Assembly: GCF_006345805.1 (NCBI RefSeq)
Contig: NC_043005.1
Location: forward strand, 21,700,001 to 21,764,000
Direction: 5' to 3'
Source: Octopus sinensis
Lineage: Eukaryota
DNA: 64,000 nt
Position numbers and translations under genes: made by a program. A model generated the notes under the pieces. The model was not told the origin of the DNA, ran no database searches, and saw nothing but the letters and a program-made list of their open reading frames with translations. Positions within the stretch are counted from its first letter, which is position 1, and each line of letters starts with the position of its first letter. Of the stretch, positions 91 to 57,807 are shown one piece after another.

Positions 91-327
91 TTGATGGAGG
101 GCCTGTTATGCTGAAAAAGGTTCACATACCAAAGAAGGCTACTTTAGGACGGCTTAGGGATAAAACCTTAAAGGAGTGTGATAAGGCTTGTCAACAATAT
201 GAAGGATGTAACACTTATCAGTACAATAATAAATCTAAGTTGTGTGATCTGAGTAATGCGACTCAGTTGAGTGATGATGTACTTAAACCCAGCGATGGAA
301 ATTGGGATATATACTTATTTAACCCAG
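91..327 (+). CDS. Exon 1 (in window): PAN/Apple domain type B
   Basis: tttcag|TTGATGGA...AACCCAG|gtcagt; 237 nt; [33 protein letters not shown]...WDIYLFNP has PAN Cys spacing C-x3-C-x5-C...C. Confidence 0.9.
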
Positions 328-57300: not shown

Positions 57301-57807
57301 TACCTTTGCAGCTTAAATATTGGCACAACTTTTGCAAAGAATCTCAAGATTTTCTACAACTCTCTTAAATTTTGATTAGGGTAGCATTTTGTGGATCAAT
57401 TCTTTGCTTATTACAAATTGTCCACTTACATGATTATGCATCTTATGCTTTTCAGTATTAAATATATTCTAGGAAGTACGTGTATGGTATGTGTGTGCAT
57501 GCATGCATGTGTGTGTGTATTTGGATGAGTGGATGTGCATAAAATAAATGCCTTGTTTTCTATTTTGTTTCAGTCAATGAAGGGATTATTACAATGAAAA
57601 CGATTGGCATACCAAGCAAGGCTACTTTAGCACAGCTGAACAATAAGACCTTAAAGGAATGTGAAAAGACTTGTCATAAATATATAGAATGTAACTCTTA
57701 TCAGTACAACGCTGAAGATAAGTTGTGTGATCTGAGTAATGTGACTCAATTGAGTGATGAACTTAAGCCCACCAATGGAAACTGGGATATATACTTATCT
57801 AACCCAG
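91..57807 (+). CDS. Partial multi-exon gene: extracellular tandem Sushi(CCP)/PAN-Apple repeat protein (14 exons in window, 993 codons; 5' and 3' ends outside window)
   Basis: 14 paralogous exons bounded by AG/GT. Every exon length is a multiple of 3 and every intron is phase 1. No stops inside exons or at junction codons. Order: PANb,S,PANa,PANb',S,PANa,PANb,S,PANa,PANb',S,S,PANa,PANb. Confidence 0.88.
430..700 (+). mobile_element. Degraded RTE LINE 3' end / RTE-tail SINE-like fragment
   Basis: Similar to 3' end of RTE copy at 13070-13720 (agacctttgg...gaagaccc...aagccaagt...gatgatgatga). Confidence 0.65.
1812..1982 (+). CDS. Exon 2: Sushi/CCP domain
   Basis: tttcag|CTATTACA...TGTGAAG|gtaatt; 171 nt; [56 protein letters not shown] (4 Cys, CxPP, YxC, W). 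Not in the ORF track. Confidence 0.88.
4078..4225 (-). mobile_element. RTE LINE 3'-terminal fragment
   Basis: (cat)n-cgtttaacgtccgctttccatgctagcatgggttggacgg matches the RTE 3' terminus at 24100-24240 and 30292-30430. Confidence 0.8.
4453..5284 (+). mobile_element. Tc1/mariner superfamily, maT-like (DD37D) transposon, internally deleted and defective
   Basis: TA|cagggt...accctg|TA ends. Transposase remnant HPVNIMVFG...QQDSAPCH...[16 protein letters not shown], with 37 residues between the last two Asp. In-frame stop at 4889. Confidence 0.8.
5689..5928 (+). CDS. Exon 3: PAN/Apple domain type A
   Basis: ttccag|CTTCTAAG...ATAGAAC|gtaact; 240 nt; [27 protein letters not shown]...RDYYQR. Confidence 0.88.
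7709..7942 (+). CDS. Exon 4: PAN/Apple domain type B' variant
   Basis: gtctag|CCAATAAA...AACCCAG|gtcagt; 234 nt; IPGKDTF...[30 protein letters not shown]...[10 protein letters not shown]. Confidence 0.9.
8085..9620 (+). mobile_element. Penelope-like retroelement remnant (RT C-terminal part + GIY-YIG endonuclease + terminal region)
   Basis: [18 protein letters not shown]...YRKP...[28 protein letters not shown] (PLE RT/thumb), then [11 protein letters not shown]...YNHRCSF...SLASHVW...YDIKWRII (GIY-YIG-like). Frameshifted. Confidence 0.75.
10548..10800 (-). mobile_element. RTE LINE 3'-terminal fragment
   Basis: (cat)n tail plus conserved RTE 3' UTR (ccatgctagcatgggttggac...tggatgcccttcctaatgccaaccac). 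Confidence 0.8.
11374..11544 (+). CDS. Exon 5: Sushi/CCP domain
   Basis: tttcag|CTTATGCA...TGTAAAG|gtaaca; 171 nt; [56 protein letters not shown]. Confidence 0.88.
12110..12193. repeat. (CTA)n/(ATA)n/(ATAGTA)n microsatellite
   Basis: Directly visible; abuts the 5' truncation point of an RTE copy. Confidence 0.9.
12194..13720 (+). mobile_element. 5'-truncated RTE-clade LINE (RT C-terminus, 3' UTR, (GAT)n tail), frameshifted
   Basis: [58 protein letters not shown]; ends in gatgatgatg. Confidence 0.92.
15406..15639 (+). CDS. Exon 6: PAN/Apple domain type A
   Basis: ctttag|ATCCTCGG...GTAAAAC|gtaatt; 234 nt; [27 protein letters not shown]...RDYYQR. Confidence 0.88.
16870..17345 (+). mobile_element. 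Old degraded RTE RT fragment
   Basis: MQFGFIP..., [14 protein letters not shown]...[19 protein letters not shown] resembles RT of the intact copies. Confidence 0.6.
18787..18960. repeat. (TTC)n followed by (GTT/GCT)n microsatellites
   Basis: Directly visible. Confidence 0.95.
19476..19873 (-). mobile_element. R4/Dong-like RLE non-LTR element 3' fragment next to (TAA)n
   Basis: [10 protein letters not shown]...[15 protein letters not shown]...[13 protein letters not shown] matches the C-terminus of the 36212-38641 ORF; abuts (att)n 19874-19918. Confidence 0.8.
19919..20414. repeat. Probable interspersed repeat between (ATT)n and (ATC)n tracts, family unassigned
   Basis: More GC-rich block sharply bounded by microsatellites; no recognisable coding motif. 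Confidence 0.35.
20472..20700 (+). mobile_element. tRNA-derived SINE
   Basis: ggcggtaagctggcagaagtgttagc (A-box-like), gagttcaaattcc (B-box-like), core cctttcatcgttttgggggtcaataaaataaatacc; related copies at 21160, 15150, 5460, 52075 and (minus) 47720. Confidence 0.75.
20715..21130 (-). mobile_element. RLE (R4/Dong-like) element 3' fragment between (TAA)n tracts
   Basis: Reverse strand reads approximately RIRSQT/PDIV...[22 protein letters not shown]...[12 protein letters not shown]...[14 protein letters not shown]; flanked by aat/att repeats. Confidence 0.6.
21160..21360 (+). mobile_element. tRNA-derived SINE
   Basis: ggtggtgagctgg...gttctgagttcaaattccactaaggtcaac...aataaaataagtatcagttgag...aggccttgtgcctttagtagaa. 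Confidence 0.75.
21952..22185 (+). CDS. Exon 7: PAN/Apple domain type B
   Basis: ttccag|CTGATGAC...AATCCAG|gtcagt; 234 nt; [30 protein letters not shown]...WNIYILNP. Confidence 0.9.
22395..23570 (-). mobile_element. Degraded older RTE LINE (RT C-terminus + 3' UTR)
   Basis: [18 protein letters not shown]...[36 protein letters not shown]-type 3' tail near 22400. Confidence 0.75.
23575..24052 (-). mobile_element. Tc1-like transposase remnant
   Basis: [24 protein letters not shown]...[17 protein letters not shown]. Confidence 0.65.
24100..27480 (-). mobile_element. Long RTE-clade LINE copy (part of APE endonuclease, RT, 3' UTR), frameshifted
   Basis: [25 protein letters not shown] (APE); [40 protein letters not shown] (RT); (cat)n tail at ~24100. 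Confidence 0.93.
28375..28925. mobile_element. Rearranged maT-like fragment interrupted by a CR1-like 3' fragment
   Basis: tagggtgcaatgggtaaattg matches the left end of 4453; 28452-28558 is inverted transposase sequence; 28560-28895 encodes [30 protein letters not shown] (CR1-type C-terminus) with an (att)n tail. Confidence 0.65.
29740..29950 (+). mobile_element. Degraded SINE 3' portion (second family)
   Basis: cttagcagtttggc...agaataagta...aaaccccttcaaggtagtgccccagtatggccaca...aatgactgaaacaagtaa resembles a common molluscan SINE tail (recall, not searched). Confidence 0.4.
30292..32580 (-). mobile_element. Young 5'-truncated RTE-clade LINE with uninterrupted RT ORF
   Basis: ORF 30798-32786 has full RT motifs ([32 protein letters not shown]) and C-terminal GRPRKTW. 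The first ~70 aa derive from flanking DNA. (cat)n tail at ~30292. Confidence 0.95.
32921..33088 (+). CDS. Exon 8: Sushi/CCP domain
   Basis: ttacag|TTGTCACA...TGTAAAG|gtaatg; 168 nt; [55 protein letters not shown]. Confidence 0.88.
35482..35721 (+). CDS. Exon 9: PAN/Apple domain type A
   Basis: ttctag|TTACTAAG...GTAGATT|gtaatt; 240 nt; [27 protein letters not shown]...RDYYQR. Confidence 0.88.
35953..35999. repeat. (TG)n microsatellite
   Basis: Directly visible. Confidence 0.95.
36033..39027 (-). mobile_element. R4/Dong-like non-LTR retrotransposon (RT + CCHC finger + restriction-like endonuclease), 5'-truncated
   Basis: 809-aa ORF 36212-38641: [39 protein letters not shown]...[19 protein letters not shown]...IDMSIP...KYKDL. 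Frame extends upstream to ~38830, with one frameshift, then on to (taa)n. Confidence 0.93.
39028..39078. repeat. (ATT)n microsatellite between stacked RLE elements
   Basis: Directly visible. Confidence 0.95.
39079..39557 (-). mobile_element. Second RLE (R4/Dong-like) family 3' fragment
   Basis: [13 protein letters not shown]...[11 protein letters not shown]...[13 protein letters not shown]...IPIIVGALG...[13 protein letters not shown]; flanked both sides by (att)n. Confidence 0.85.
39635..39930 (-). mobile_element. Third RLE family 3' fragment
   Basis: EIQRLWSMK...IPIIIGALG...[17 protein letters not shown]; adjacent to (att)/(aat)n 39557-39633. Confidence 0.7.
40460..40920 (+). mobile_element. 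RTE 3' UTR fragment with (GAT)n tail
   Basis: Similar to 13290-13720; preceded by (TA)n/(GATA)n at 40346-40455. Confidence 0.75.
41707..41940 (+). CDS. Exon 10: PAN/Apple domain type B' variant
   Basis: atctag|CTGATGAT...AACCCAG|gtcagt; 234 nt; IPGHDTF...[30 protein letters not shown]...[10 protein letters not shown]. Confidence 0.9.
43931..44905. mobile_element. MITE-like element with long imperfect terminal inverted repeats
   Basis: tggaatttcagaatagattgcttacataagttggattttctc...ttaccatgcgcttcaaatga is the approximate reverse complement of tcattttcaagtgcatggtaa...gagaaaatccatcttatgtgggcagcctattctgaaactcca; non-coding interior. Confidence 0.65.
45900..46600 (+). mobile_element. RTE LINE 3' end and 3' UTR
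   Basis: Closely parallels 13005-13720. Confidence 0.88.
46948..47118 (+). CDS. Exon 11: Sushi/CCP domain (extra copy, 5 Cys)
   Basis: ttccag|CTAATGAT...TGTAAAG|gtaatg; 171 nt; [56 protein letters not shown]. Confidence 0.82.
47720..47920 (-). mobile_element. tRNA-derived SINE
   Basis: Reverse complement of the 20472/21160 SINE (ttttattgacccc...aaagtcaactttggcagaatttgatctcagaatgtaa...aaatgccgctaagcattt). Confidence 0.7.
48000..48280 (-). mobile_element. Old RTE fragment between the two tandem Sushi exons
   Basis: [11 protein letters not shown]...[23 protein letters not shown]. Confidence 0.65.
48368..48538 (+). CDS. Exon 12: Sushi/CCP domain
   Basis: tttcag|CTTATAAA...TGTAAAG|gtaaca; 171 nt; [56 protein letters not shown]. 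Confidence 0.88.
49100..49290 (-). mobile_element. Degraded RTE 3'-terminal fragment
   Basis: (cat)n-ttaacatc...ctatgctggcatgggttggacagtttgac. Confidence 0.6.
52342..52581 (+). CDS. Exon 13: PAN/Apple domain type A
   Basis: ttgtag|ATGCCCAG...GTAAACT|gtaatt; 240 nt; [27 protein letters not shown]...RDYYQR. Confidence 0.88.
54020..54260 (-). mobile_element. Degraded RLE element C-terminal fragment
   Basis: [33 protein letters not shown]. Confidence 0.55.
54750..56535 (-). mobile_element. Ty3/Gypsy LTR retrotransposon pol remnant (RT, RNase H, integrase)
   Basis: IFQPTMD...YLVDVLI...CEF...IRYLG (RT); [13 protein letters not shown] (RNase H); [10 protein letters not shown]...[11 protein letters not shown]...[10 protein letters not shown] (integrase). 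Order RT-RH-IN, many stops. Confidence 0.85.
56560..57340 (-). mobile_element. Degraded RLE-type non-LTR RT remnant
   Basis: [11 protein letters not shown]...[22 protein letters not shown] parallels the RT of the 36212-38641 element. Confidence 0.55.
57574..57807 (+). CDS. Exon 14: PAN/Apple domain type B
   Basis: tttcag|TCAATGAA...AACCCAG|gtcagt; 234 nt; [30 protein letters not shown]...WDIYLSNP. Confidence 0.9.

Follow-up and report, generated by a model that had tools for sequence, protein, structure and literature searches.

Fourteen intact exons in Octopus sinensis from the middle of a much longer octopod Sushi-PAN-PAN array

The window analysed, a stretch of 64,000 nucleotides of the Octopus sinensis genome (assembly GCF_006345805.1, contig NC_043005.1, positions 21,700,001 to 21,764,000), carries 14 one-domain exons on the plus strand between positions 91 and 57807, which were located by six-frame translation and tblastn, with the splice sites fixed afterwards. 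They encode five Sushi (complement control protein, CCP) domains and nine PAN domains of two types, four PAN-A and five PAN-B. An initial annotation, made from the letters alone, had read them as one gene spanning the window with a strict Sushi-PAN-A-PAN-B repeat. All 14 exons were found. Each begins after an AG acceptor preceded by a pyrimidine tract and ends at a GT donor; all are in phase 1-1 and a multiple of three nucleotides long. Joined, they amount to 2979 nt or 993 codons. One reading frame is free of stops and the two others contain 69 and 127, which confirms the intact frame described before. The modules are real as well: in the Pfam-type check that had been proposed, all nine PAN exons scored above the PAN_1 cut-off (27.4-47.0 bits against 21.4) and four of the five Sushi exons above theirs, the fifth (exon 8) reaching 18.5 against 20.7. 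The repeat is not strict, since two Sushi exons adjoin (starting at 46948 and 48368), and the array does not end with the window: the exons fill 91-57807, but they make up a small piece of a much longer octopod Sushi-PAN-PAN array, from whose middle these 14 intact exons come.

From the first exon to the last, the domains run B S A B S A B S A B S S A B, where S stands for Sushi and A and B for the PAN types; this can be summarised as (Sushi)1-2-PAN-A-PAN-B and is not strictly periodic. Its steps (B>S, S>S, S>A and A>B) were obeyed by only 5 of 200,000 random exon orders. The PAN core is C-x3-C-x5-C...C, while C6, C32, C42, W48 and C55 are invariant in the five Sushi exons; all 56 core cysteines are kept across the window and net frameshifts are zero. 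Nucleotide hidden Markov models run on both strands returned the same 14 exons and no extra, decayed or minus-strand copy in the window, the next match having an expectation value (E) of 0.16. Neutral evolution of the exons was simulated at three distances (0.10, 0.15 and 0.20 substitutions per site), with 2000 runs apiece. Over this range, 12-20 stops and 12-21 lost cysteines were expected, and not a single run kept all exons stop-free or kept all cysteines. The conservation of cysteines and splice sites noted initially is well founded, and the window exons are shown to be under selection for frame, cysteines and splice sites.

Neither a first exon with a signal peptide nor an exon for the GON domain, described below, was found within the window. 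Nine candidate signal-peptide first exons were rejected, all of them in or beside GT-rich microsatellite sequence. A sequencing-run search with positions 1-8000 gave no RNA run among the 24 matches listed.

A PAN-B profile search matched 8 proteins among 4391 candidates, 7 of them named Octopus. A further search gave 10 matches, including an added O. vulgaris model of 861 aa, the named ones being Octopus again, and a cluster look-up gave O. vulgaris models of 4283 and 4470 aa. In a scan of 1.84 billion representative proteins, 265 matches were obtained, and the eight strongest (E < 1e-90) were all pieces of the array. The array models comprise CAI9728790, CAI9728792, CAI9728796 and the 861-aa model in O. 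vulgaris, LOC128248837-40, LOC106869390 and LOC106869402 in O. bimaculoides, and XP_036361599-601 in O. sinensis, one model (P0007) being grouped with O. bimaculoides by assumption. Most are labelled "uncharacterised" in the databases, and some are misnamed SVEP1-like or ADAMTS20-like. Since the models of each species lie on contigs of equal length (118.2, 94.6 and 109.7 Mb for the three species) and their accessions are mostly consecutive, they are presumably neighbours; the four O. vulgaris models lie on one chromosome. The steps seen in the window are followed by 292 of the 305 adjacent domain pairs in the models, the 13 off-pattern junctions being S>B, A>S or B>A. An alignment of the window protein, 989 residues long and with 7 gap positions, was obtained both with CAI9728790 (58.5%) and with LOC128248839 (57.4%); the best identity per exon among the array models is 59-89%. 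Orthologous arrays were shown in three Octopus species.

The array matches are octopod, in agreement with the proposed lineage specificity. No long S-A-B polymer was found outside Octopus, within the limits set by fragmentary annotation, 50% clustering and search length. The GON domain occurs solely at the end of the terminal model in O. vulgaris and O. bimaculoides (E 6.3e-33 and 1.5e-32), and the tail after it is short and hydrophilic. No enzyme domain or membrane anchor was detected in the array models scanned. This terminus, together with the derivation of the parts from short molluscan PAN/Sushi/GON proteins discussed below, goes beyond the initial annotation. A metagenome scan reduced 51 candidates to one weak locus (L001), which had no open reading frame of at least 100 aa at the match and was discarded. 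A literature search of main texts, with supplements outside its reach, found no paper on the array protein or its model accessions; this search and the membership comparisons below revealed no characterised family to which the array belongs, as had been supposed. Six array accessions were absent from the covered part of one supplement file of an O. vulgaris mucus proteome, where the first SVEP1-named row is a different gene (PMC10138644). Likewise, the array protein is not described in the covered text of studies on limpet mucus (PMC7333891) and the Aplysia immunome (PMC9334734).

Exon 1 (91-327, PAN-B with four cysteines, PAN_1 E 2.7e-9) contains a one-residue insertion present in 3 of 95 B domains, and its best match is domain 35 of XP_036361601 (73%); exon 2 (1812-1982, a short Sushi, E 3.3e-4) best matches the last domain of the same model (82%). 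The arrangement of blocks is peculiar to the window, and its exons 3-9 lack a clear one-to-one partner among the array models. These are exon 3 (5689-5928, a basic PAN-A with net charge +14, E 1.5e-10), exon 4 (7709-7942, PAN-B, E 3e-6), exon 5 (11374-11544, Sushi, E 3e-5), exon 6 (15406-15639, PAN-A with an in-frame 6-nt deletion, E 2.3e-12), exon 7 (21952-22185, PAN-B, E 7.7e-8), exon 8 (32921-33088, Sushi with an in-frame 3-nt deletion, slightly below the Pfam cut-off, E 0.0027) and exon 9 (35482-35721, PAN-A, E 4.3e-10). In a quick tree built from 77 columns of 95 rows, exon 10 (41707-41940, PAN-B, E 3e-8) is sister to domain 2 of CAI9728796, with a support value (SH-aLRT) of 99; the two are 77% identical, and the next-best match reaches 64%. 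The doublet follows: exon 11 (46948-47118, Sushi, E 6.2e-6) is sister to domain 32 of XP_036361601 (tree support 0.905), and exon 12 (48368-48538, Sushi, E 2.8e-5) pairs with domain 33 of that model (89%, support 0.97). In exon 11, a fifth, unpaired cysteine replaces the usual tyrosine, five cysteines being present in 1 of 128 Sushi domains, and an inter-chain link through it is possible. Exon 13 (52342-52581, E 6.5e-9) is the most diverged PAN-A copy. Exon 14 (57574-57807, PAN-B, E 5.6e-9) forms with exon 1 the closest B pair in the window, with a synonymous distance (dS) of 0.18 in spite of being 13 exons apart.

Introns beside equivalent exons are homologous. For instance, the plus-strand stretch 14005-15716, which comprises intron sequence and exon 6, matches 50940-52656 at 69% over 1.8 kb. 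Since the flanking introns are homologous, the units were copied as genomic DNA together with their introns; unequal crossing-over would be the simplest route, and phase 1-1 exons would preserve the frame after any gain or loss of a module. The higher-order repeats vary among species, three O. bimaculoides B domains clustering apart from five of O. vulgaris. The pooled ratio of nonsynonymous to synonymous substitutions (dN/dS) was lowest in Sushi (0.57) and higher in B (0.88) and A (0.93). Codon site models of our own, with 4-5 sequences per exon class, placed 25-43% of sites at a ratio of 0.08-0.17 and the remaining 57-75% near 1, with an overall value of 0.83-0.84 for PAN. Positive selection (M1a against M2a) was not significant in any class (p 0.12, 0.41 and 0.06, the last for Sushi). 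Over all copies, columns conserved at 90% numbered 13 of 56 in Sushi, 21 of 79 in A and 9 of 77 in B, and were mostly cysteines and core residues. Conservation appears limited to the fold, with a surface that is hardly constrained.

The four O. vulgaris models sum to 10,471 residues and 152 domains. Without an O. vulgaris counterpart at 88% identity or more are 42 of 50 O. sinensis domains, equal to 2,911 residues; orthologous domains of the two species are mostly 92-100% alike. The union of the O. vulgaris and the extra O. sinensis domains is about 13,400 residues, and at the 63 bp per codon of the window the extrapolated gene length is 660-840 kb. Model limits are not shared between species: three O. 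bimaculoides models map along the single O. vulgaris model CAI9728790, while LOC106869390 and LOC106869402 map along CAI9728796, the latter in order on domains 50-61. Breakpoints therefore differ between Octopus species, and models start and stop inside domains. The suspicion that annotation may fragment the gene is supported, as seen in O. bimaculoides against O. vulgaris models. A signal-like (hydrophobic) start was found in none of the 13 octopus array models (maximum 1.56, against 2.03-3.72 in six of six secreted relatives), and all 13 appear to be 5'-incomplete. In the window, exon 10, the orthologue of domain 2 of CAI9728796, directly precedes exons 11-12, the orthologues of domains 32-33 of XP_036361601. 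Taken with the shifted model limits and the lack of signal-like starts, this meeting of one model's end with another's start, uninterrupted by a first exon or a GON exon, makes a single chain of 7,000-13,000 residues likely. The separate models probably represent one gene of more than 7,000 residues; for a gene of 12,000-13,000 residues the chances seem evenly divided.

The PAN fold of the array was examined with an AlphaFold model of a 380-residue orthologous segment, in which both PAN domains, predicted as helix-plus-sheet, had a local confidence (pLDDT) of about 90 and the Sushi domain about 75. Single PAN domain models superpose on the N-domain of hepatocyte growth factor (HGF) with a root-mean-square deviation (rmsd) of 2.8-2.9 Å over 83-85 columns. 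Multi-domain superposition on the apple-disc geometry of factor XI and on the MIC4 pair geometry fails (rmsd 13-25 Å), and a solved-structure search with the 380-aa orthologue gave no match at E 0.01. Four cysteines are present in 77 of 80 A and 92 of 93 B domains. PAN-A is basic, with a mean net charge of +6.8 and 97% of 80 domains positive, while PAN-B is neutral, and 72 of its 93 domains retain an N-glycosylation sequon behind Cys4. Lysine or arginine occupies offsets -8, -7, +3 and +8 from Cys1 in 76%, 72%, 80% and 65% of the 80 A domains, with none at +6, and PAN-B has alanine at +3. In a weak alignment, these basic residues of PAN-A coincide in part with the patch before and within the first helix of the HGF N-domain, to which heparin binds. 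The first subdomain of GON (P0017 residues 162-217) matches the C-propeptides of collagen I (E 3.5e-4) and collagen III (E 3.9e-3), a match that hints at kinship of GON with COLFI/fibrinogen-type heads. A fold search with the GON model, which is poor, returned solely Sushi-containing proteins among the matches listed.

From the domain types, the cysteines and the relatives, it is very probable that the array product is secreted, with the signal peptide on an unannotated 5' exon. There is about an even chance that it is a glycosylated, disulfide-locked filament, binding polyanions at many points and assembled through GON, with a structural or adhesive role in a matrix or secretion. In such a filament the chain would resemble beads on a string, with Sushi modules as spacers. 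The PAN-A modules, being basic, would hold on to polyanions, for instance sulfated glycans, by analogy with the HGF N-domain, the PAN-B modules would bear N-glycans, and the GON head, with its collagen C-propeptide-like first subdomain, would join chains end-on. Length and valency would outweigh the exact surface sequence, so that unequal crossing-over between repeated introns could add or remove whole modules. The fullest version is a tentative one, with the balance against it: that a single octopod gene, about 0.7-0.8 Mb long, specifies one Sushi-PAN-PAN filament of about 13,000 residues, 190 domains and 1.5 MDa with a GON assembly head, its length reset in each species by turnover of higher-order repeats, forming an undescribed octopus fibre or gel hidden by split annotation.

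Several observations weigh against a single-gene filament. No sequence spans the joins that would link CAI9728790 through the 861-aa model to CAI9728792, and the bridge in the window is rearranged, with exon 10 (start of the last model) before exons 11-12 (near the end of the previous one), an order that requires a block duplication. Exons 1-2 are matched to the end of XP_036361601 only as best hits, with weak backing from trees, and the insertion of exon 1 is also present in domain 25 of CAI9728796. Internal hydrophobic stretches occur in two O. sinensis models (2.71 and 2.08), one of which resembles intron read-through, and the 5' end of the array is found in no model. On the structural side, the predicted template-modelling score (pTM) of 0.47 gives no inter-domain geometry or fixed arrangement, the HGF-like basic patch of PAN-A is partial with weak sequence matches (E 0.04-0.6), and most of the GON domain is modelled at pLDDT below 50. 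In addition, near-neutral surfaces could mask weak diversifying selection, given the Sushi p value and the few sequences per class. The gene is known from genomic sequence and predicted models.

Other explanations of the locus were weighed. It is doubtful that the array is a cluster of paralogous genes, two to four in number and each 2,000-4,500 residues long, though this would agree with the splitting of the array in the annotation of each species, with the two unbridged joins, with a window order different from that of the O. sinensis and O. vulgaris models, and with the recent duplication by which the first domains of XP_036361601 arose from a domain of the model before it (92% alike). Against this, no model has a signal-like start, models begin and end mid-domain at breakpoints that vary by species, one GON end is known per species, and the window has no internal first exon or GON exon. 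Rather improbable, and compatible with the other readings, is that the symmetric exons are cassettes spliced in many combinations into shorter, varied isoforms with the full chain seldom made: any skip would stay in frame, all exons being phase 1-1 and divisible by three, and the off-pattern junctions of the public models could be such products. These junctions may equally be annotation gaps, as some models hold partial A domains, and the pattern kept elsewhere in the models suggests that neighbours are used together; moreover, shuffled extracellular modules are usually in phase 1-1. That the array is a decaying or non-functional tandem duplication is extremely improbable. Exonic distances (0.26-0.37) are only slightly under those of the flanking introns (0.29-0.43) and the dN/dS of PAN exons is near 1, but decay is contradicted by the absence of stops and net frameshifts, by the full set of core cysteines, at odds with the neutral simulation, and by the intact array in three Octopus species.

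As for function, an adhesive, lectin or immune role had been suggested initially. It is unlikely that the product is a multivalent lectin for immune or microbe recognition, with PAN faces diversifying so as to fit many glycans. The best solved-structure matches of PAN-B are the apicomplexan microneme proteins MIC4 (E 1.9e-5) and SML-2, the latter a galactose lectin according to its structure title, the overall PAN dN/dS is 0.83-0.84, and some short PAN/Sushi proteins of molluscs bear galectin or fibrinogen heads. Nevertheless, M1a against M2a was not significant, no conserved surface ligand motif was seen beyond the fold core, and a single very long locus contrasts with lectin families of many short genes. 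The lectin or immune part of the suggestion thus gains little, and the structural or adhesive part fits better, although unproven. A role in the gamete coat or in gamete recognition, as a giant protein whose repeats are homogenised within each species in the manner of abalone VERL or sea-urchin EBR1, is quite unlikely. The species-specific B clusters and a limpet relative combining VERL_C with Sushi and GON would suit it, VERL having 23 ZP-N repeats in the part of the account available (PMC8830517), but no array model has a ZP domain, and most repeats are old (45-75% alike) and not homogenised. The egg threads of O. bimaculoides, moreover, are dominated by another protein, octovafibrin, in the covered text (PMC10336842).

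Returning to the proposed structural filament, close architectural parallels to it are short molluscan proteins. The cuttlefish Sepia pharaonis protein CAE1175485 (359 aa, from a model incomplete at its start) is PAN-Sushi-Sushi-GON with a B-type PAN, and is 34% identical over the C-terminal part. A Haliotis Sushi-GON protein (1386 aa) and a Patella VERL_C-Sushi-GON protein (767 aa) combine Sushi and GON like the array and have signal-like starts; in the former (P0161), Sushi blocks alternate with three domains of about 170 residues without Pfam match ahead of GON. Atlas clusters of short molluscan PAN/Sushi and GON/PAN proteins (scores 0.87-0.91) were taken as leads only. The array fits this pattern of PAN/Sushi modules with a terminal GON, the window being tied to the GON-bearing model through exon 10. 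These short proteins lack the long S-A-B polymer, and the best reading is that the array was expanded from such proteins by exon-block duplication. PAN pairs recur in secreted octopod proteins (P0020, P0028, P0034 and P0045), Argonauta hians having a four-PAN protein (GAB1601772, with a signal peptide) and a PAN-VWD-vWA protein, and Octopus a PAN-WSC protein and an ADAMTS-like protease; by sequence, the pair looks like a reused cephalopod module.

The PAN fold is common to the array and to the N-domain of HGF/plasminogen, factor XI, prekallikrein, Toxoplasma MIC4 and Sarcocystis SML-2. The array differs from these proteins in having no kringle or protease and tens of PAN copies interleaved with Sushi. 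The apple domains of factor XI and prekallikrein have six cysteines, with one disulfide linking the domain ends, whereas the array PANs carry four. Among very long extracellular repeat proteins is also sea-urchin EBR1; the array differs from both VERL and EBR1 in its domains, its less homogenised repeats and the lack of a shown gamete link, and no ZP or VERL_C match was found in the array models scanned. VERL resembles the array as a very long extracellular repeat protein shaped by unequal crossing-over, as far as the covered text describes it (PMC8830517). SVEP1/polydom shares many Sushi domains, but none of its vWA, HYR, EGF and pentraxin domains was detected in the array models scanned, while a real SVEP1-type protein (P0016) shows them. 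The GON domain occurs in ADAMTS9/20 in the covered part of one account (PMC6714394), and the C-terminal GON of ADAMTS9, ADAMTS20 and GON-1, in that of another (PMC4349717), is like that of the orthologous terminal models. The M12B metalloprotease and TSP1 domains of those proteins are absent from the array models scanned, all of them apparently 5'-incomplete. The automatic names SVEP1-like and ADAMTS20-like are misleading. Cephalotoxin-type salivary proteins, with LDLa, Sushi, TSP1 and EGF domains in the portion of the source covered (10.64898/2026.04.09.716377), have Sushi alone in common with the array. Octovafibrin, the egg tether of O. bimaculoides, is extracellular, with tandem disulfide-locked modules and terminal assembly domains, as proposed for the array; in the covered text it has 29 EGF repeats between two C-type lectin domains (135 kDa) and no PAN, Sushi or GON (PMC10336842). 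Octovafibrin offers a precedent within octopus, and the likeness may be one of functional analogy alone.

The novelty of the array is in its architecture and scale, its component domains being all familiar. If it is one gene, it would encode a megadalton octopus protein that is unnamed in the literature searched and has been split and misnamed by annotation; a chain of about 13,000 residues, if true, would be among the largest extracellular proteins known in animals. To cephalopod biology the array offers a specific candidate for an extracellular material restricted to this lineage, such as mucus, cuticle, connective tissue or the coat of eggs or spermatophores. It also illustrates clearly how exon-block duplication can enlarge a short molluscan PAN/Sushi-GON protein many times over, with selection acting on the fold and leaving the surface almost free.

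The introns hold other elements. Antisense in intron 9, an 887-codon frame of a retrotransposon without long terminal repeats (36212-38875, minus strand) matches RVT_1 (E 2.3e-29) and zf-RVT, and its C-terminus, from a motif recognised by eye, is presumably a restriction-like endonuclease; related fragments are found at 39182-39640 and about 19479-19980. A second family, of long interspersed nuclear elements with a reverse transcriptase and a PHD-like finger, is present at 30801-32813, 24777-27471, 22736-23534, 12191-13487 and 60091-62872, and its copies fill much of the two longest introns. Intron 4 contains overlapping low-complexity frames at 8827-9441 (plus strand, 205 codons, rich in Asn, Ser and Thr) and 8677-9267 (minus strand), neither with a Pfam match, which could be transposon-derived or a mucin-like cassette. 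An inverted match links 1185-1665 in intron 1 to 63443-63874, where no Sushi exon follows on the minus strand, and is probably a dispersed repeat. Finally, five copies of a dispersed element lie at 13336-13545, 24346-24600, 30452-30674, 40547-40695 and 46278-46444, with internal tandem units of 64-67 bp, or 138 bp in one copy.

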